Shown here: positions 7,500-19,424 of the stretch, one piece after another
How positions within the stretch are numbered: position 1 is the first letter of the stretch
How the letters are laid out: each line of letters starts with the position of its first letter
Origin: Desulfobacterales bacterium
GTDB taxonomy: Bacteria; Desulfobacterota; Desulfobacteria; Desulfobacterales; UBA11574
NCBI GenBank assembly: GCA_030145345.1
Contig: JAQYVT010000004.1
Coordinates: 992 to 64,991, forward strand
Reading direction: 5' to 3'
Length of the DNA: 64,000 nt
The notes under the pieces: generated by a model
What the model saw: the letters and a program-made list of their open reading frames with translations, nothing else
What the model was told of the DNA's origin: nothing
Database searches by the model: none
Position numbers and translations under genes: made by a program

Positions 7500-8144
7500 A
7501 TGACACTTTTAGTGAACGAAATATTCCACAGCATACAAGGCGAATCCATTTACAGCGGCCGGCCCTGTATATTTGTCAGGCTCACCGGATGCAATTTAAG
7601 ATGCACATACTGCGACACCCGCTATGCCTATGAAGAAGGGGTAGAGATGGAAATTGCCGAAATCACCCGCCGTGTGGCCGCCTACAACTGCCGCCTGGTT
7701 GAAATTACCGGCGGAGAACCCCTACTTCAAACCGAAACGCCGCTTTTAATTTTCAGGCTGCTTGAAAATGGATATGAAGTCATGATGGAGACCAACGGAA
7801 GTCTCGATATCAGTAAAGTCGACCCAAGGTGTGTAAAAATCGTCGATATCAAATGCCCCTCAAGCGATGCGTCCGAAAAAAATGATCTGGAAAATTTAAA
7901 AAGATTAAATCCCAAAGACCAGATTAAATTTGTCATCGGAAACCGCACAGACTACGTGTATGCCAAAAAAACAATCGAGTTGAATCGCCTGGATTTTTCC
8001 AAAGATCACATTCTTTTTTCTCCGGTATCCGGAAAAATGCCGCCCGCAGACCTTGCACAATGGATACTTGAAGACAACCTGAACGTCAGGCTGCATCTTC
8101 AAATACAAAAGATTATATGGCCTGACAGGGAAAAAGGCGTATAA
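7500..8144 (+). CDS. queE: 7-carboxy-7-deazaguanine synthase (radical SAM)
   Basis: N-terminus NEIFHSIQGESIYSGRPCIFVRLTGCNLRCTYCDT carries the QueE CxxxCxxC-type cluster motif. Confidence 0.9.
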   Translation: MTLLVNEIFHSIQGESIYSGRPCIFVRLTGCNLRCTYCDTRYAYEEGVEMEIAEITRRVAAYNCRLVEITGGEPLLQTETPLLIFRLLENGYEVMMETNGSLDISKVDPRCVKIVDIKCPSSDASEKNDLENLKRLNPKDQIKFVIGNRTDYVYAKKTIELNRLDFSKDHILFSPVSGKMPPADLAQWILEDNLNVRLHLQIQKIIWPDREKGV

Positions 8145-8302
8145 CCCTAATTGAGCAAAAGTTTAGGATGCCCCAGATCCAAGGCATCAAGGACCAAGCC
8201 CCGCTGATAAAGCGGGATAAACCTTCCTCGTCTGCTGCGAGCCCCCGATAACGAAATGGAACATGCGGTCAAGGCAGTTGGCATCGTGTAGCCGGAAATC
8301 AG

Positions 8303-9631
8303 CTATTCCGAATAGCGCTGCATCAGCTTATAGATTGCATTTGTTCCAAAATCAATCGACTCAGCGGGAACACGCTCGTCTACCGAGTGGATCGTTTTTG
8401 CAAAATCAAAGCCTTTGGGGAGAGGCATCGGCAAAAAGCCGTAGGTCTGAATACCCAGGCGGGAAAAAAAACGTCCATCTGTGGCTCCGCTCATAAGGAG
8501 AGGCACGGGTATGCACCCGGGATCGTCTTCGACCAGTATGGCGGACAGCGTGTCAAACAGTCCCATATCCGGTTCGACCGGACCTTCATCATAGCGGGTA
8601 ACTTCAAATTCAACTTCGCTTCCGATGATTTTTCGAAGTTCTGCAAACATGTCCTCTGGACGATAACCCGGCAATAATCTTCCGTCTAACTCAACGGTTA
8701 CTTCACTGGGTATTACGTTGATTTTCTCGCTTCCGTGCAAGATGGTCGCACTTACCGTATTATGCAGCAGCGGGTCAAAAGTACGGCCCCGTTCGCCGAG
8801 AAGGTTTAATATCGTGTTTGTAAGCGGCGGGTTTGTCAGTTGTCTGATCATCAGGCCGGATATGCCGCCAAGCTCGGAAGCTATTGTAGTGAACATTTGA
8901 CGGGCTACCGGTGTAATGTGAACGGGCAGGCGTTTTCTGTCAAGGTTTTGAAGGATTTGAGCAAGTTTTGCCATGGACCCATTACGAACAGGCAGTGAAC
9001 CATGTCCGCCCGGACCGCGAACAATTGCTTTCATCCAGCATGGATGCTTTTCCGCCACCATAATCGGGTAGAAGCGTTTGTTTCCGATATCCAATGAAAA
9101 TCCACCGAACTCTCCGATGGCGTATTGAACGTTCTCAAAGAAATGCGGATGGTTGTCTACGAGATACTTGGCGCCCAAATCACCACCGGCTTCTTCATCG
9201 CTGACGATGGTTAAAATAATATCCCCCGGCAGTTTCGCCCCTTCGGATTTTGCACGTAAAAATGCGGAAACCATCATGGCGACGCCGCCTTTCATATCCA
9301 GGGCGCCGCGTCCCCATATAAAGCCATCGACCAGTTTTCCTTCAAATGGGGGGTATTGCCATTTTTGTTTGTCTGTGGTTACAACATCGACATGTCCGTA
9401 AAGCAAAAGAGGGGCGGCATTACCCTGACCTGCCAATCGTGCGATCAGGTTGGGGCGTTTCGGTGTCTGAGCCGCAATGGTTGTTTCGATCCCCGCATCT
9501 TTTAGCAACTCACCGATAAACTGAATACATTCCGCTTCATTGCCGGGTGGATTCGTGGTGTTGAACTGAATGAGTTTTTGCAGGAGTTCTGACGGGCGCT
9601 GATGGACAGATGATTTTCTTTTTGATTTCAT
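8303..9631 (-). CDS. M20/M25/M40-family metallopeptidase (dipeptidase/deacylase-like)
   Basis: Motifs HVDVV, GRGALDMKGG and SDEEAGG. ATG 9631 (MKSKRKSS) is preferred over the GTG at 9688. Confidence 0.8.
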   Translation of the reverse strand: MKSKRKSSVHQRPSELLQKLIQFNTTNPPGNEAECIQFIGELLKDAGIETTIAAQTPKRPNLIARLAGQGNAAPLLLYGHVDVVTTDKQKWQYPPFEGKLVDGFIWGRGALDMKGGVAMMVSAFLRAKSEGAKLPGDIILTIVSDEEAGGDLGAKYLVDNHPHFFENVQYAIGEFGGFSLDIGNKRFYPIMVAEKHPCWMKAIVRGPGGHGSLPVRNGSMAKLAQILQNLDRKRLPVHITPVARQMFTTIASELGGISGLMIRQLTNPPLTNTILNLLGERGRTFDPLLHNTVSATILHGSEKINVIPSEVTVELDGRLLPGYRPEDMFAELRKIIGSEVEFEVTRYDEGPVEPDMGLFDTLSAILVEDDPGCIPVPLLMSGATDGRFFSRLGIQTYGFLPMPLPKGFDFAKTIHSVDERVPAESIDFGTNAIYKLMQRYSE

Positions 9632-10346
9632 AAGGCCGCTTTCGATTATCGATAGTTTCCCATAAAGTTCATGCCGGAATGGTCGCACTGTCTGGGTTTC
9701 TGTTTCGCGTCATCAATCTTTCAAACAAGTTTTTGCATCCTATGGATTTGTTTTTGTTCCTAATCTCAGATTTTTTTGTATTATAGTAAAAAGGATTAAT
9801 TATTCAACAAAATAATAGGTAATTGATTAGCATTAAAGAGGCACTCACAACCCTCCCCATAACTGTCTCATTTCACCTTTTTATTTCAAAGAGAGCGCGC
9901 TTTGCATAACCTATAGAATTTTTGGCGGCCAAGCCAAGACCATCCTTCAAAACTCTGCGGATCTTAATCTATAATATTTCGTTAAAAATCCACACAAAAA
10001 AAAGTCTTTTAATTATGCATTATTAGTTGCAATTAAAGATGATATGTGTCATGCTTTCTTAAAAAATCAAGGGGATTGAAATTCTTAAAGCTGGACACCG
10101 TATAAGGTGGTTAGGTGCGCCCGGTGAACAAAAATCGGGTAGATCACCATAAAATGAGCCTCTTGCGAGGCTAAAATGCAGATTGATAATAGGCCATTGT
10201 CCTTATTTTAAGAGTAATTTGCTGTAATTCTCAACGCTGCTTCTTAAAAATTTTGACAAAATCCTAAACTCGGTAATCCAGCGAGTTTTTCAAACCTCTC
10301 AGAAAATGAGAAAGATGGACGACTGTAGACATAGGAGAATAATAGC

Positions 10347-12374
10347 ATGTCAGACCAAGAAATCCGCATAGAGGTTCAGCCTCTAAAATTAAAGTTAAAA
10401 TCAACTTTTCGCCATGCAGGGAAAGAAAGAAATGAAGGTGAAAGCATCTGGGTTATAGCCAACCGAGGGGGAATAACAGGATACGGCGAAGGATGTCCAA
10501 GATCCTATGTGGCAGGAGATGATCTGAAATCGAGTGTTCAATGGGTAGAGAAAAACTTTTCAAGCGGAAACATCTTTTTTAATACATTGGATGATGTAAA
10601 AAACTGGATGAAAGAGAATGATAGCTTAATCGACAGTTATCCCTCAGCCTGGTGTGCAATAGAAATGGCATTGCTGGATCTCTTCTCGCAGGAGAAGAAT
10701 TGTAGTGTGGAAGCAATGCTCGGCATTGACAATTTCAGAAGACAAGGGAGATATACGGCTGTTCTGGGTGATGACAAGAGATGGAAGTATACTACCATAG
10801 TTGATCAATATCTGGTCCGCGGATTTTCAGATTTTAAAATCAAGTTAAACGGAGACCTTGAAAGGGACAGGGACAAGATTGCTATTCTAAAGGATCTGTG
10901 TGAACAGCATGGGACATCAGATGTTCGTATACGCCTGGACGCCAACAACTTATGGGACAGCAGGCCTGAAGAAGCTATCACACACTTGAAAGCATTGGAT
11001 GGACCCATATTTGCGATAGAAGAACCCGTTGGCTCCAAAAACGCTCCTGATATAATCAGGGTAAGCGCAGCTACTGGGTTGCCCGTGATTCTGGACGAAA
11101 GTCTGTGTAAGTTGAGTGAACTATCACTGTATAAAAATTCTTTAGGGAAATTCATCGTGAATATTAAAATTTCACGAGTGGGTGGACTTATTCGGTCCCT
11201 GAAAATAATTGACGAAATAAAAAAACTGGGCTGGCCCATAATTATTGGCTGCCATGTCGGGGAAACATCCTTGTTAACCCGCGCCGCACTCATCCCTGCT
11301 GCTGCGGCCGGAGAAAACCTGATAGCTCAGGAAGGGGCGTATGGTGATTATTTGGTTGAACGGGAACCTGTAGAACCGATTCTGAAGTTTGGTCGCCATG
11401 GGCAGTTGGATCTGAGTCTTCCGTATTACTACAAAACTTTTCAAGGGCTTAAAGTAATACCAACGGAAAACTGGAACACAGGATTGGGCATGCTTTGTCG
11501 ATGGCCCACCCTTCCTGATAATGGCCACCCTGAAATTTTAACTATAAAAATGCCGGATAAGTATAAGATTCATTACCGACATTGGGGTAAAACCCAGGGG
11601 GAAGATGTTTTGCTGGTCCTGCATGGCGGCATGAGCCATTCGGGATGGCAGGCGCCTCTAGGCAATGCCTTGAAATCCCTATCCGGAAATTTAGCGATGG
11701 TGGCACCGGATCGCAGGGGCTGTGGATTAAATAATGACCGTGGAGATCTAGGTTCGGTTCACCTGGTAATAGAAGATGTGGTAAAACATATTGAATTTTT
11801 AAAACGCTCGTTCAAGCGGGTCCATCTGGCAGGATGGTGCCAGGGAAGTCAATACGCCACGGTCGCTGCCGCCCAAGCAGGAGATCTGCTTTCCAGTCTT
11901 ATCTTATTAACCCCCGGCTTTTTCTGGAATGAACGTTTCAGGTCCGTCATTCGTATTGCGGAAAGTAATATATTCAACATGGTGTCTGAACTTAAATTAA
12001 GGCCGGACCGTAACCAGGCATATGTTCCAATCCCGATGGAAGGAACCGATTTTACAATGGATGAAGAATGGCTTGATTTTATTGAAAACGATGAACTCAA
12101 AACCACCATGATTACCATGAAAACCGCACATATCATGGATGAGATCCAGGAACTTTCCTGGCAAGCGCTCTTTCAAACAAATCTTCCCATGTTAAGCATT
12201 CTGGCGGAACAGGATCGAATTGTGGATAATAATAAATTCCAGCAATTTACTGGCCATATGTTTTCAGGGAAAAACCACAACAGGCTGGTAAAACTGGAAA
12301 GCGGGCATGCCATACAATTTGAAATGCCTGAACAAATTGCCGGGGAGATTATCAGTTTTATCCAAACAATATAG
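10347..12374 (+). CDS. Fusion protein: N-terminal enolase-superfamily (MLE subgroup) domain plus C-terminal alpha/beta-hydrolase domain
   Basis: RBS AGGAG lies upstream. Enolase-superfamily catalytic pattern: FKIKL (K164/K166), LDAN (D198), IEEP (E225), LDES (D250), NIKISR (K274). The C-terminal half has HGG (LHGGMSHSGW), a nucleophile elbow G-W-C-Q-G (C498, TGC 11838-11840), EQDRIVD, and SGHAIQFE. Confidence 0.8.
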   Translation: MSDQEIRIEVQPLKLKLKSTFRHAGKERNEGESIWVIANRGGITGYGEGCPRSYVAGDDLKSSVQWVEKNFSSGNIFFNTLDDVKNWMKENDSLIDSYPSAWCAIEMALLDLFSQEKNCSVEAMLGIDNFRRQGRYTAVLGDDKRWKYTTIVDQYLVRGFSDFKIKLNGDLERDRDKIAILKDLCEQHGTSDVRIRLDANNLWDSRPEEAITHLKALDGPIFAIEEPVGSKNAPDIIRVSAATGLPVILDESLCKLSELSLYKNSLGKFIVNIKISRVGGLIRSLKIIDEIKKLGWPIIIGCHVGETSLLTRAALIPAAAAGENLIAQEGAYGDYLVEREPVEPILKFGRHGQLDLSLPYYYKTFQGLKVIPTENWNTGLGMLCRWPTLPDNGHPEILTIKMPDKYKIHYRHWGKTQGEDVLLVLHGGMSHSGWQAPLGNALKSLSGNLAMVAPDRRGCGLNNDRGDLGSVHLVIEDVVKHIEFLKRSFKRVHLAGWCQGSQYATVAAAQAGDLLSSLILLTPGFFWNERFRSVIRIAESNIFNMVSELKLRPDRNQAYVPIPMEGTDFTMDEEWLDFIENDELKTTMITMKTAHIMDEIQELSWQALFQTNLPMLSILAEQDRIVDNNKFQQFTGHMFSGKNHNRLVKLESGHAIQFEMPEQIAGEIISFIQTI

Positions 12375-12550
12375 CCTGGCTGAAGTTTATACGGATTACC
12401 CTTATCTTTAGATTTTCCAGGCGTTTTTGTAGGTACATTTCCGCATGATGCTGACCAGTCAATAACATCAAACTCTGCGAGTACCACATCCTTCACCTAC
12501 GGTTGCAAACTTAATTTTGTTGCTAAATGACAGGGCCGTATTCCTTCTAA

Positions 12551-14119
12551 TTATTCTTTGTCCAGAACACTCCTTATTTTCTTTGAAAGAGTTTTCATAT
12601 CAAATGGTTTCTGGATAAAACCATTACAACCACGATCCAGTATTTCGGTCGCTTGACCTTTGATACCGTATCCGCTCGAAAGGAGAACCTTGATATCAGG
12701 ATTTATCGTTTTTAATTTATCATAAGTTTCTCCACCGTCCATGACCGGCATAATTATATCCAGCAGAACTATATCGATCTTTTCCATGTTCTTTTCATAA
12801 ATCTCTAAAGCTTCTTTTCCATTCTCTGCAATCAAAACTTCATACCCTAAGCTTTCAATCATGTCCTTGCCGACCTTCACAATTATATCCTCATCATCAA
12901 CAAAAAGAATCGTTTCTGAGCCCCTAAGCACCTTTTCATAGACCTTCTTTTCTTTTACAGGCTCCTTTTCCGAGACCGGTAGATGTATCTTTAACGTTGT
13001 TCCGATATCTTTCTCGCTGTAAACATCTATAAACCCACCATGATTCTTGATGATACCATACACAGAGGCCAGCCCCAGCCCGGCACCCCTGTCCATTCTC
13101 TTGGTTGTAAAAAATGGATCGAATATTCTTTCCTGGGTCGCTTTATCCATACCCACACCAGTATCTGTTAAAGAAATTTGAACATACTGGCCGGGTTCAA
13201 CTTGATACGGCCTTTTAAAATTCTCATCAATTACAACGTTTTTTGTCTGGATGTATAGATCTCCCCCTCCGGGCATCGCCTGGTGGGCATTGACATATAG
13301 ATTTAAAAGCACTTGTTCAATTTGTTTTTGGTCTACTTCTACCGGCCAAATATCCGTTTGACTCTTTAAATGAATGGTAACCTCTTTTTTTATTCGCCCA
13401 AACCTATCGGCGCTTTTATCGATGATTTCGTTCATGTCCGTCGGTTTGACTTCGTATTTCCCCCCTCTGGCAAATCCCAAGAGTTGTTTTGTAAGTTTTA
13501 CTGAGCTCTTTATGCAATCCTCTATTCCTTTGAGGTGTTCAAAATGGGGGTGATCAGGACCAGTTTGCAAATACATCAAGGCAGTCCGCCCCTGTATTCC
13601 CATTAGCAGATTATTGAAGTCGTGAGCAATGCCACCGGCCAATGTGCTGATGGCCTCCATTTTCTGAATCTGTTGAAATTGTCTTTCCAGCTTTTTTTGT
13701 TCGCTGATGTCTCTTAGATCTAAAGCACTGCCCCTTGGGTTTCCTTCCCTATCCCTGTATACAGCTCCGCTTATACTTACATGGATAATGCTTCCTTCTT
13801 TTGTGTAGCAATGAGTTTCAATGCCTGAAAAACTTTTACCAGCCAGCAATTTATCGCTCATCGTTTTGATTTCTGGCCAAGCATCCTCTGGCACAAAAAA
13901 ATTCATCGACTTGCCAAAACACTCATTTAAAGTCCACCCGAAAACACTTGTGAAGGCAGGGTTGAAATATTCTACTTTGCACTCAATATCGAAAAGGACA
14001 ACTGGGTCAGGGATTGTCTCTATAATCGTACGGTATTTTTCATCGCGCTGTTCTAAAGCACTTTCAACTTGCTTGTTTTCCGAGACATTTTTAGTATATG
14101 AAAGCATTCCTATGCCCAT
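12551..14119 (-). CDS. PAS-domain hybrid sensor histidine kinase with C-terminal receiver
   Basis: PAS region, H-box AHDFNNLL, HATPase N/G boxes (NLYVNAHQAM, DTGVGM, GAGLGL), and a REC domain (ILFVDDED...LLDIIMPVMDG). No transmembrane segment is evident. Confidence 0.85.
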   Translation of the reverse strand: MGIGMLSYTKNVSENKQVESALEQRDEKYRTIIETIPDPVVLFDIECKVEYFNPAFTSVFGWTLNECFGKSMNFFVPEDAWPEIKTMSDKLLAGKSFSGIETHCYTKEGSIIHVSISGAVYRDREGNPRGSALDLRDISEQKKLERQFQQIQKMEAISTLAGGIAHDFNNLLMGIQGRTALMYLQTGPDHPHFEHLKGIEDCIKSSVKLTKQLLGFARGGKYEVKPTDMNEIIDKSADRFGRIKKEVTIHLKSQTDIWPVEVDQKQIEQVLLNLYVNAHQAMPGGGDLYIQTKNVVIDENFKRPYQVEPGQYVQISLTDTGVGMDKATQERIFDPFFTTKRMDRGAGLGLASVYGIIKNHGGFIDVYSEKDIGTTLKIHLPVSEKEPVKEKKVYEKVLRGSETILFVDDEDIIVKVGKDMIESLGYEVLIAENGKEALEIYEKNMEKIDIVLLDIIMPVMDGGETYDKLKTINPDIKVLLSSGYGIKGQATEILDRGCNGFIQKPFDMKTLSKKIRSVLDKE

Positions 14120-14675
14120 TCCCTCAAGAATTAAAAACAGTTAAAACACAACAGGATTTGGCCAGATTTCTTCATCTTGATAGAAAAATCGATTTATTGG
14201 CAAAAATTTATATCGTTATACTCTTTGATGTTTCTTCCCAGGGGATGTTAGTTAAAAAAAAGCGATCAACTAAATCGCCCTTCTCAAAGATTATCAAGAC
14301 AGGTCGAGAATCCTACAAGGCTCTTGCCACATATAATAGTCTCCCGAGATGCCGTTATTAACACCTGGATATATCTTCTCTTTTTATTAAGATTTTGAAG
14401 ATGCCCGGCTGAAAAGATGCACGCATTTCCGAGAAATTCTATTGGCTAAATTAAGGTAAAGCAAAAAACGTGCAAAGTTAAACATTCTATTTTTAAAAAT
14501 AGATATATAACTATATTTCAACGGGTTATATTTTGTTTGCAGGTTGCACGGCAAAAGTATTTGACAATATTTGACAGTAATTTTGCTATTTTTTGCCAGT
14601 TTTAAACTATCTGGAGGAATATTAGGCGAAAGTTAAATCTGAAAAATCTAAACCGCTACAGGTTTATCAAAAGAG

Positions 14676-14717
14676 TCCTCACAAATAGGGTGCAATGCCG
14701 CTTCAGGGAATCCACTC
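14676..14717. repeat. 42-bp repeat, partner of 33928-33969 in inverted orientation
   Basis: TCCTCACAAATAGGGTGCAATGCCGCTTCAGGGAATCCACTC matches the reverse complement of 33928-33969 at 40 of 42 positions. Confidence 0.85.
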
Positions 14718-14947
14718 TGAGAATTGGAGCCGGGCCACAGGAATATGTTGCTATTATAGATAATACATTTAATTTTTGAGTCAAATAAGGCTGTGAATTC
14801 AACTCATAAGTGCAACAGAATTTGGTGGTTAAAAGATGAGTTAACTGCTATACATTAAGTGATCCTTCACCGCCAGCGGCCTGATTACGAGTTCCCCAGA
14901 CATTGGTAACAAGGCTTTTAAATGTTGAATATAGGAGAAAATCAATC

Positions 14948-18722: not shown

Positions 18723-18731
18723 TTGTCGATT

Positions 18732-19424
18732 ATGAGCCATTTAAAAAAAGCCGTTGTTCTTTCAAGTGGGGGACTCGATTCCACCACGGCAATGGCCATC
18801 GCAAAATACGAAGGTTTTGAAATCTATAGTCTAAGTTTTTCCTACGGGCAGCGTCACGCCTTTGAGCTTGAAGTCGCTCAAAAGGTGGCGGACGCTTTGG
18901 GTGTCACCGAACACCTCGTAATTAATATAGATTTAAATAAAATAGGGGGGTCATCCCTTACCGATGATATTGATGTGCCAAAAGAAAGGGATGAACGGGC
19001 AATGACCCGGGAAATACCCGTTACATACGTTCCGGCCAGAAATACCATCTTTCTTTCCTTTGCCCTGGCATGGGCCGAGGTTCTCGAATCATCTGATATT
19101 TTCATCGGGGTTAACGCAGTCGACTACAGCGGTTATCCGGACTGCCGGCCTGAGTATATCGACGCATTTGAACGTATGGCAAATCTTGCCACAAAGGCGG
19201 GTGTGGAGGGCATAACAAAAATCAGGATAAGGACGCCCCTTATCCATTTGACCAAAGCGCAGATCATCCAAAAAGGTATGGAACTGGGGGTCGATTACGC
19301 TTTAACCCACAGCTGCTATGACCCTTCACCCCAAGGCCTGGCATGCGGTGAATGTGACAGCTGTTTTTTAAGAAAGAAAGGTTTTAAAGAAGCCGGTGTC
19401 AAAGATCCGACAAAATATATATAG
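18732..19424 (+). CDS. queC: 7-cyano-7-deazaguanine synthase
   Basis: [16 protein letters not shown]-loop and a C-terminal CGECDSC zinc motif. Confidence 0.9.

Follow-up and report, generated by a model that had tools for sequence, protein, structure and literature searches.

A described route from D- to L-amino acids combines a GNAT succinyltransferase, an N-succinylamino acid racemase (NSAR) of the MLE (muconate lactonizing enzyme) subgroup of the enolase superfamily, and a hydrolase (Sakai et al. 2006, in the passage of PMC12006748 that cites it). In Myxococcus xanthus the PilZ-PilZ-GNAT protein PixB is an effector of cyclic di-GMP (c-di-GMP); binding was proposed to boost its acetyltransferase activity, and its substrate is unknown (PMC8316039). 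The subject of this work is a 675-aa protein encoded at positions 10347-12374 (+) of a 64,000-nt stretch of DNA from a Desulfobacterales bacterium (GenBank assembly GCA_030145345.1, contig JAQYVT010000004.1, positions 992 to 64,991; hereafter "the window"), in which an MLE-subgroup enolase-superfamily domain is fused to an alpha/beta-hydrolase domain with a predicted Cys nucleophile. The fusion is a combination of known kinds, namely an enolase-superfamily domain of a racemase-type pathway and a Cys-triad alpha/beta hydrolase, in an unusual regulatory setting. Our tentative proposal is that it represents a cytoplasmic racemase or epimerase joined to a Cys-dependent deacylase or transacylase, which would act on an N-acyl amino acid supplied by a GNAT gated by a second messenger.

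We found no publication on the fusion, on its Cys variant, or on its link to GNAT proteins with PilZ domains or with domains binding cyclic nucleoside monophosphates (cNMP). Database entries carry either the name "alpha/beta fold hydrolase" or a compound COG-style name, which agrees with the initial annotation, made from the sequence alone, where the fusion was not recognized as a described enzyme. Annotations such as "alpha/beta fold hydrolase" or MenC/MenH-like are uninformative or wrong for this protein.

Two catalytic domains in one reading frame

The open reading frame (ORF) is intact (its end coordinate includes the stop codon) and is preceded by an AGGAG Shine-Dalgarno sequence at 10333-10337 (+), read from the sequence 9 nt before the ATG, just as the initial annotation had described a 675-aa frame with a good ribosome-binding site. 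The presence of two catalytic domains in this ORF (P0001 among the proteins compared), also proposed there, is borne out by Pfam, which assigns the product to MR_MLE and alpha/beta-hydrolase families, and by full-length homologues; all motifs named earlier (FKIK, LDAN, IEEP, LDES, NIKISR, HGG, GWCQG, EQDRIVD and SGHAIQFE) are present. The MLE-subgroup domain spans residues 1 to ~385 (10347-11501, +), as delimited by Pfam, by Foldseek and by stand-alone relatives, which end at the equivalent of residue ~385, and the alpha/beta-hydrolase domain (Hydrolase_4) spans residues ~396-675 (11532-12371, +; PF12146, PF12697, PF00561 and PDB matches). The AlphaFold2 model of the fusion, built with 51 homologues, has a mean pLDDT of 88.9 and a pTM of 0.85.

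Pfam detects MR_MLE_C at residues 152-343 (E 5.6e-24) and a weak MR_MLE_N match in the N-terminal domain, which consists of a capping domain, a TIM barrel and a conserved C-terminal tail ending in an ENWxxGxG motif. Residue conservation was counted in an alignment of 51 fusions (46-84% identity). The KxK motif at the end of barrel strand 2 (K164-I-K166, 10836-10844, +), with K166 as the presumed acid/base, is retained in 50/51 (K164) and 51/51 (K166) sequences. The predicted metal ligands D198 (RLDANN, 10938-10940, +), E225 (IEEP, 11019-11021, +) and D250 (LDES, 11094-11096, +) are each found in 51/51, as is the strand-6 lysine K274 (NIKISRVGG, 11166-11168, +), the putative second acid/base of a two-base racemase. 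All defining features of the MLE subgroup are found: the strand-2 KxK, Asp/Glu/Asp ligands on strands 3, 4 and 5, the strand-6 Lys, and a cap with a modified TIM barrel. Judged by its residues, the N-terminal domain has everything that an MLE-subgroup catalyst needs: three carboxylates to bind the metal, and two lysines predicted on opposite faces. Its capping domain has invariant residues of its own (R28, C50, R52, Y54 and C103).

Profile searches of the N-terminal domain against the PDB gave as the four best matches the dipeptide epimerase 3jva from Enterococcus faecalis (5e-31), the putative dipeptide epimerase 3r0k (6e-31), the N-succinyl Arg/Lys racemase 2p88 (2.8e-28) and Bacillus subtilis YkfB (1jpm, 2e-27). 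Fold comparison gave a similar order: in Foldseek, dipeptide epimerases lead (target-normalised TM-scores 0.83-0.90 to 3jva, 1jpm and 3q45; best match 3jva, 0.90, E 1.6e-21), followed by NSAR/NAAAR enzymes (2p88 at 0.85, target-normalised; 2zc8 and 1sja also listed) and muconate cycloisomerases. Foldseek was run on the whole model and all 50 matches listed are to the enolase domain, hence no fold match of the hydrolase half is among the matches listed. NCBIfam models of characterized families all match weakly. By E-value the menC models lead (3e-22), with TIGR01928 at 79.1 bits against a cut-off of 200.65 and TIGR01927 at 66.3 against 130.55; other o-succinylbenzoate synthase models reach 27-35 against 236-288. 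The second-best match is the N-acetyl-D-Glu racemase equivalog DgcA (68.5 bits, cut-off 400). Lower scores are obtained with mucon_cyclo (57.7 bits, cut-off 334.95) and the L-Ala-D/L-Glu epimerases NF041118 (52 bits, cut-off 500) and NF011708 (40.5 bits, cut-off 343). Since all equivalogs fall far below their cut-offs, the fusion belongs to the MLE subgroup but to no characterized family.

The menC scores bear on the first of two hypotheses in the initial annotation, a bifunctional MenC-MenH enzyme of classical menaquinone synthesis that would combine o-succinylbenzoate synthase with synthase activity for 2-succinyl-6-hydroxy-2,4-cyclohexadiene-1-carboxylate. A precedent is known in plants, where PHYLLO fuses MenC-like and MenH-like modules. 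Nonetheless, in addition to the low menC scores, the menH model TIGR03695 reaches only 20.2 bits against a cut-off of 208.55, and MenH uses a Ser nucleophile where the fusion has Cys498. MenD is missing from the source genome (3.57 Mb, 97.8% complete), where the best TIGR00173 match scores 59 bits against a 244-bit cut-off; this genome encodes two MqnA/MqnD-family proteins (233 and 194 bits, above the cut-off), which indicates the futalosine route. No men gene occurs in any of the ~90 related loci. The observation that men genes are lacking near the fusion thus holds for the genome at large, and the MenC-MenH hypothesis can for practical purposes be dismissed.

Muconate and chloromuconate cycloisomerases among the fold and sequence matches, together with weak matches to 3-oxoadipate enol-lactonase models, raise another idea, a cycloisomerase fused to a hydrolase of the enol-lactone or dienelactone type, so that consecutive muconate-like steps of ortho cleavage would reside in one protein. 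Chloromuconate cycloisomerase, of the MLE subgroup, is indeed followed by the Cys-His-Asp enzyme dienelactone hydrolase in the modified ortho pathway. Against this stand the mucon_cyclo score given above, the equally low score of pcaD (20 bits, cut-off 255.85), and the assignment of the hydrolase domain to Hydrolase_4, with no dienelactone hydrolase (DLH) match in Pfam. Most hosts, judged by taxon names, fall in anaerobic groups (Desulfobacterales, Syntrophales, Smithella), which are not known to have oxygen-dependent ring cleavage, and no aromatic-catabolic genes recur beside the fusion, its neighbours being signalling proteins and GNATs. We consider a role of this kind very improbable.

Dipeptide epimerases (3jva; YkfB, 1jpm/1tkk) are the best matches in both structure and sequence and have the same catalytic residues as the fusion. 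A dipeptide epimerase joined to a Cys peptidase, for instance in the recycling of cell-wall peptides, would epimerise the C-terminal residue and cleave the peptide with its S33-like domain; Pfam does describe Hydrolase_4 as "Serine aminopeptidase, S33", and an M20 peptidase is encoded divergently upstream in the window (8303-9688, -). However, identity to the fusion is only ~21-25% in the Foldseek alignments, the scores against the L-Ala-D/L-Glu epimerase equivalogs are very low, and the profile alignments to 3jva, 1jpm and 3q45 stop at residues 317-324, before strand 8. The strand-8 segment of the fusion, as read from the sequence rather than from a superposition, is L-I-A-Q-E329-G-A-Y-G-D-Y (E329 in 50/51), with no DxD visible; in dipeptide epimerases (YkfB/YcjG) the strand-8 DxD binds the alpha-ammonium group of the dipeptide. 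The own cap invariants and the fused hydrolase are further differences from these enzymes. The M20 gene lies beside the fusion only in the window and in one related contig (L014, see below), not in the other ~80 loci, and a purely catabolic dipeptide route needs no acyltransferase, yet an acyltransferase is the partner found beside the fusion. A dipeptide substrate therefore seems unlikely to us.

The C-terminal domain matches Hydrolase_4, Abhydrolase_6 and Abhydrolase_1 within residues 420-665 (E 3.6e-19 to 3.3e-11), with PF12146 (Hydrolase_4) at 69.5 bits against a 27-bit cut-off over residues 420-642. Its PDB sequence matches are monoglyceride lipases, including the human enzyme (MGL), at ~1e-7. 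The oxyanion motif H426-G-G428 (HGGMSHSGW, 11622-11630, +) is retained at 50/51, 51/51 and 50/51, respectively, and resembles the MGL oxyanion loop. The predicted nucleophile is Cys498 (TGC codon, 11838-11840, +) in a G-W-C-Q-G elbow, and the presumed triad acid D623 (EQDRIVD, 12213-12215, +) and triad H654 (SGHAIQFE, 12306-12308, +) are each found in 51/51 fusions. D627 is likewise invariant (51/51); we take D623 to be the acid by comparison with the motif ADRLCD of human MGL. Cys498 is found in 49/51 fusions, the exceptions being one Ser and one Gly (the latter in a second paralogue), and stand-alone relatives of the hydrolase half (P0134, P0205 and P0265) also read GWC(Q/F)G. The Cys is thus a trait of the family and not a strain-specific substitution, as it would be if all relatives had Ser at the elbow, and the proposal of a Cys-Asp-His triad in the initial annotation is upheld. 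The domain is, as far as its sequence predicts, an alpha/beta hydrolase of the lipase/lysophospholipase type with a C498-D623-H654 triad and an HGG oxyanion hole. It shares with the MGL/lysophospholipase family the Hydrolase_4 membership, the HG-G...HSG oxyanion-loop motif and the placement of Asp and His, but differs in having Cys for Ser (49/51) and in its position behind an enolase-superfamily domain.

A Cys-His-Asp triad on the elbow, with an expected acyl-thioester intermediate, is also the arrangement of dienelactone hydrolases, polyhydroxyalkanoate (PHA) synthases and MacB-TE, the last being a Cys thioesterase domain of the alpha/beta-hydrolase fold (PMC13288461). The fusion nevertheless lies outside the dienelactone hydrolase sequence family, as no DLH family appears among its Pfam matches at E <= 0.01. 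In an Actinacidiphila (Streptomyces-group) locus (L008, 1623-10894) a stand-alone GWCFG relative directly follows a protein with adenylation and peptidyl carrier protein (PCP) domains and a 2,071-aa nonribosomal peptide synthetase (NRPS), and is itself followed by a major facilitator superfamily transporter. Pfam finds condensation, adenylation and PCP domains in the NRPS and no thioesterase domain. The GWCFG protein may be a trans-acting Cys release enzyme, and this context hints at thioester or transacylase chemistry for the stand-alone relative.

Origin of the fusion and its acyltransferase partner

The fusion has a wide distribution. A word-indexed homologue search returned >1,400 significant matches; the top 120 of these, at 64-85% identity, without exception span the full length and have the Pfam architecture of the fusion. 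Moreover, a scan of one genome per GTDB species found a relative in 556 species genomes, from which 80 loci were retained. These come from Desulfobacterales, Syntrophales/Smithella, Spirochaetota, Acidobacteriota, Gemmatimonadota, Burkholderiales and Actinomycetota, i.e. at least six phyla; cultured hosts include Desulfoluna spongiiphila, D. limicola, D. butyratoxydans, Smithella sp. D17 and SCADC, and Nocardioides immobilis. A maximum-likelihood tree of the N-terminal domain unites all 53 fusions included in a single clade (support 0.988) that contains no unrelated stand-alone protein, hence the fusion arose once. The sole "half gene" (P0122, 397 aa, 58% identity) encodes an MLE domain only and has downstream of it a PilZ-GNAT gene instead of a hydrolase half; as it is nested twelve nodes deep within the fusion clade, it represents a secondary loss of the hydrolase domain. 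The cautionary alternative of the initial annotation, separate halves in orthologues and a frameshift-healed artefact at this locus, is ruled out by the >1,400 homologues and by the derived position of P0122.

Outside the fusion clade, the strand-6 Lys is replaced by Arg in 113/132 sequences of the wider alignment of stand-alone N-domain relatives. These ~370-aa proteins (P0125-P0270) read N-x-R-V-S-K in 106/132 cases, with a Lys three residues after the Arg, and the N-x-R-V-S-K sequences keep the KxK and the metal ligands; the Arg-bearing clade is predicted to be unable to use the classical two-lysine mechanism. In L010 (region 8113-11167) and L011, one stand-alone relative (P0127) is encoded divergently from a two-subunit AcnX-type dehydratase and is flanked by HDOD and Cache-PAS signalling proteins.

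The gene neighbourhood of the fusion was studied in ~90 loci, in which ORFs were called, neighbours were clustered by all-against-all BLASTP and recurrent clusters were annotated. Counts given out of 53 refer to loci with 3.5 kb or more of flank on either side, one being taken per species. A GNAT protein is encoded within three genes of the fusion in 46/53 loci (~87%) and adjacent to it in 39/53, and a GAF-PAS sensor accompanies it in 28/53. The partnership is therefore near-obligatory, and the partner GNATs usually carry c-di-GMP-type (PilZ) or cNMP-binding domains. Three forms occur: PilZ-PilZ-tandem-GNAT, bare tandem GNAT in translational coupling with the fusion, and GNAT joined to a cNMP-binding domain.

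The typical arrangement in Desulfobacterota and Spirochaetota has, downstream of the fusion, genes for a ~700-aa protein (in 45 of the ~90 loci), a GAF-PAS sensor (in 38) and often a B12-binding radical-SAM enzyme. PilZ is the only Pfam domain in the ~700-aa protein, and the AlphaFold2 model (pLDDT 87) reveals more: its N-terminal half matches double PilZ proteins of the MrkH/YcgR/VCA0042 type, and its C-terminal half matches tandem GNATs (VipF, 2wpw of the clavulanate pathway, MshD, a glucosamine N-acetyltransferase and N-myristoyltransferases). The sensor starts with an unassigned N-terminal region, continues with GAF and PAS, and ends in an output part that differs between loci (HD-GYP, HisKA-HATPase-REC or a nucleotide cyclase). 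In one locus (L006) the fusion and the PilZ-GNAT gene are 105 nt apart and the PilZ-GNAT and sensor genes overlap by 4 nt; such spacing of the fusion and the three genes that follow it is consistent with an operon. In Acidobacteriota and Gemmatimonadota a same-strand gene for a 370-aa protein with no Pfam match lies directly upstream, its stop overlapping the start of the fusion by 4 nt in 6/7 loci, and this protein is the tandem-GNAT half of the ~700-aa protein alone (hhalign probability 100%, E 1.5e-39). The neighbouring protein in Actinomycetota and Burkholderiales combines a GNAT, which gives a weak Acetyltransf_5 match, with a cNMP-binding domain.

PixB is the closest studied analogue of this partner, though not of the fusion, in that two PilZ-type domains precede the GNAT part; unlike PixB, the partner has a tandem GNAT. 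As no Myxococcus sequence is found among the best 120 partner homologues, orthology with M. xanthus PixB is not established. PADLOC gave no match for the fusion or the PilZ-GNAT protein and recognized only the generic cNMP-binding domain of the Actinomycetota partner, which rules out a known anti-phage defence system.

Co-occurrence was also counted in a sample of the class comprising 121 genomes. Here the fusion is rare, occurring in 5 (4 full-length, 1 MLE-only), and the PilZ-GNAT protein is found in 39, and all five genomes with the fusion also have the PilZ-GNAT (5/5, vs 39/121 overall). In this sample the fusion is an accessory, not a core component, of the PilZ-GNAT/sensor module, as 34/39 genomes have the PilZ-GNAT without it, and it occurs only where the GNAT is present.

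The nature of the partner is relevant to another explanation, in which the fusion would tailor aminolipids or lipo-amino acids: the GNAT would make an N-(hydroxy)acyl amino acid, whose amino-acid head group the enolase domain would epimerise, with the Cys domain as an O-acyltransferase or a lipid esterase. A lipid for the membrane or for signalling would result, synthesized under c-di-GMP or cNMP control. The family of the C-terminal domain (monoglyceride lipases and lysophospholipases) suits this idea, as do the N-myristoyltransferases among the fold matches of the tandem GNAT, and the weak Acetyltransf_5 match of the Actinomycetota/Burkholderiales partner points the same way, given that Acetyltransf_5 presumably includes OlsB-type N-acyltransferases. 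Cys nucleophiles are suited to acyl transfer, as in PHA synthases. A relative of the N-domain (41% identity) is itself part of a 1,207-aa triple fusion (P0149; L009, 2023-5646), the other parts of which are a fatty-acid hydroxylase resembling OlsE and a GH3 N-acyl-amino-acid synthetase resembling OlsH (lyso-ornithine-lipid synthetase); this candidate N-acyl-amino-acid lipid enzyme adjoins a heptosyltransferase-family gene. For the transfer step there is the precedent of OlsI, an alpha/beta hydrolase that O-acylates lyso-ornithine lipid (PMC12493201). However, the GH3-fused relative, like 113/132 sequences of the wider family, has Arg for the strand-6 Lys, so its chemistry may differ from that of the fusions, and transfer of function from it is weakened. 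Among the NCBIfam matches at E <= 0.01 none is named OlsI, and no GH3 gene lies beside any fusion locus, where an OlsI-type enzyme (Sinac_1601) would be expected in an operon with an OlsH-type GH3. Fatty-acid hydroxylase, GH3 or lipid-export genes do not recur beside the fusion in the ~90 loci, and both the fusion and the PilZ-GNAT lack an N-terminal signal and any obvious membrane segment (from reading the sequences and predicted secondary structure, not from a dedicated predictor). We regard aminolipid tailoring as doubtful.

In five Syntrophaceae/Smithella loci (L006, L020, L024, L044 and L061) the opposite strand upstream of the fusion encodes an ApeP-like dehydratase, a FabG-like reductase and a LolA-like protein, a set that resembles the end of an aryl-polyene or lipid cluster, together with a 222-aa protein of no assigned function.

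The locus in the Desulfobacterales genome

In the window the fusion gene is monocistronic. It is flanked by the divergent M20 peptidase gene and by a convergent gene for a PAS-HisKA-HATPase-REC hybrid sensor kinase (12551-14119, -; Pfam), a tentative companion of the fusion. Comparison with a contig of a closely related metagenome-assembled genome (L014, 9929-12195) over window positions 10071-14938 reveals flanks of 93-98% identical DNA; the fusion genes themselves are only 72.7% identical. A ~2.5-kb segment with the kinase gene (12365-14938) and ~230 nt of the 5' leader (10071-10302, +) are missing from L014. Near-identical flanks around a divergent gene with extra segments suggest a swapped-in allele or cassette, and it looks as if an allele was replaced, or a cassette exchanged, at a fixed position in the chromosome. 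The M20 peptidase, kept in both, belongs to this flanking synteny only, and we rejected it as a functional partner. An Rfam scan of 9500-12700, which includes the 660-nt leader and its segment missing from L014, gave no match at E <= 1, and we accordingly rejected a riboswitch or other known RNA in the leader.

The closest orthologue (L097, 84% identity) lies in a full module of GAF-sensor, PilZ-GNAT, fusion and convergent hybrid kinase. The window kinase is not established as an orthologue of the L097 kinase, as they are only 38% identical and the similarity concerns a generic kinase core. In the source genome the fusion gene has been displaced from its partners: on two other contigs we found a homologue of the PilZ-GNAT protein (C18:9990-11126) and one of the N-terminus of the GAF-sensor (C107:24617-25426), both cut by contig ends, and the C-terminal GNAT half of the partner was not found anywhere in the assembly. 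The PilZ-GNAT module probably lies in an assembly gap. The same window also encodes a 214-aa radical-SAM protein (7500-8144) and QueC (18723-19424).

Proposed function and its implications

According to our proposal, the GNAT, activated by a nucleotide second messenger (c-di-GMP or cNMP), would N-acylate an amino acid or a similar alpha-amino carboxylate. The enolase domain of the fusion would bind the carboxylate of the N-acyl amino acid on Mg2+ and, by removing and returning the alpha-proton via K166 and K274, invert C-alpha. The Cys hydrolase domain would then attack the acyl group of one stereoisomer to form an acyl-thioester enzyme intermediate. Its hydrolysis would complete a deacylation, the outcome being either net stereoinversion of the amino acid or turnover of the acylated product; alternatively, transacylation could hand the acyl group to another acceptor. 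The fusion would thereby cover the second and third steps of a route analogous to the succession of GNAT succinyltransferase, NSAR and hydrolase. The catalytic residues, the folds, their conservation, the single origin and the gene linkage are established by the data above, whereas the substrate class, the order of the steps and the choice between hydrolysis and transfer are inferred.

The linkage expected of an NSAR-type system is found here, with both lysines (K166 and K274) conserved, a GNAT gene no more than three genes away in 46/53 loci, and the hydrolase fused. The similarity to the NSAR pathway further includes the complete set of KxK, D, E, D and K in an MLE domain, the linkage of GNAT acyltransferase and hydrolase genes to the racemase, and 2p88 among the four best profile matches, and the DgcA system is represented by the second-best NCBIfam match. 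The similarity to both is distant, however, with the fusion far below all equivalog cut-offs. The hydrolase of the NSAR pathway is an M20-type desuccinylase, a separate metallo-amidohydrolase, whereas the fusion has a fused Cys alpha/beta hydrolase; its GNAT is tandem, or joined to PilZ or cNMP-binding sensor domains; and the module sits with GAF-PAS signalling proteins rather than with amino-acid catabolic genes. The second hypothesis of the initial annotation, an epimerase or racemase whose acyl or peptidyl substrate is also hydrolysed, accords with our proposal, its peptidyl version being the dipeptide idea considered above; the decisive evidence, the conserved partnership with GNATs that have second-messenger-binding domains, could not be seen from the window.

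Several points weigh against the proposed N-acyl amino acid route. Gene neighbourhood is indirect evidence for a substrate, and in the window the GNAT is not adjacent to the fusion, as in 7/53 loci. No characterized specificity can be transferred, as every equivalog match falls far below its cut-off. The 34 genomes with PilZ-GNAT and no fusion mark the fusion as an accessory of that module, and the nested lineage that lost the hydrolase and kept the GNAT neighbour shows that the two activities are separable. In the alpha/beta-hydrolase fold, Cys nucleophiles are as typical of transferases and lactone hydrolases as of amidases. Finally, the target of the GNAT could be a protein, a possibility that has been considered for M. 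xanthus PixB (PMC8316039).

A more far-reaching idea, improbable in our estimate, is that the fusion, the PilZ/cNMP GNAT and the GAF-PAS sensor constitute a previously unrecognised relay from a second messenger to a small metabolite. In such a relay c-di-GMP or cNMP would turn on the production of an N-acyl amino acid. The fusion would determine both its configuration (that of an N-acyl-D-amino acid) and, by Cys-dependent deacylation or transfer, how long it persists, and the GAF-PAS protein would sense the metabolite and feed back on c-di-GMP (HD-GYP output), a phosphorelay or the cyclase output. If this were true, the long-sought substrates of PixB-like PilZ-GNAT effectors would be small molecules and not proteins.

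Both halves of the fusion belong to well-studied superfamilies, yet their combination, present in several hundred species that range from sulfate reducers and syntrophs to Acidobacteriota, Actinomycetota and Burkholderiales, is uncharacterised. Its distinctive features are a racemase-type domain fused to a hydrolase of another fold than in known racemase pathways, a conserved Cys nucleophile in a family that normally uses Ser, and the near-obligatory association with acyltransferases bearing c-di-GMP- or cNMP-binding domains. If the function proposed here is correct, nucleotide second messengers would directly gate the chemistry of small-molecule acylation and stereoinversion, the enolase superfamily would gain a new functional family, and the fusion would provide a testable lead to the substrates of PilZ-GNAT effectors such as PixB.

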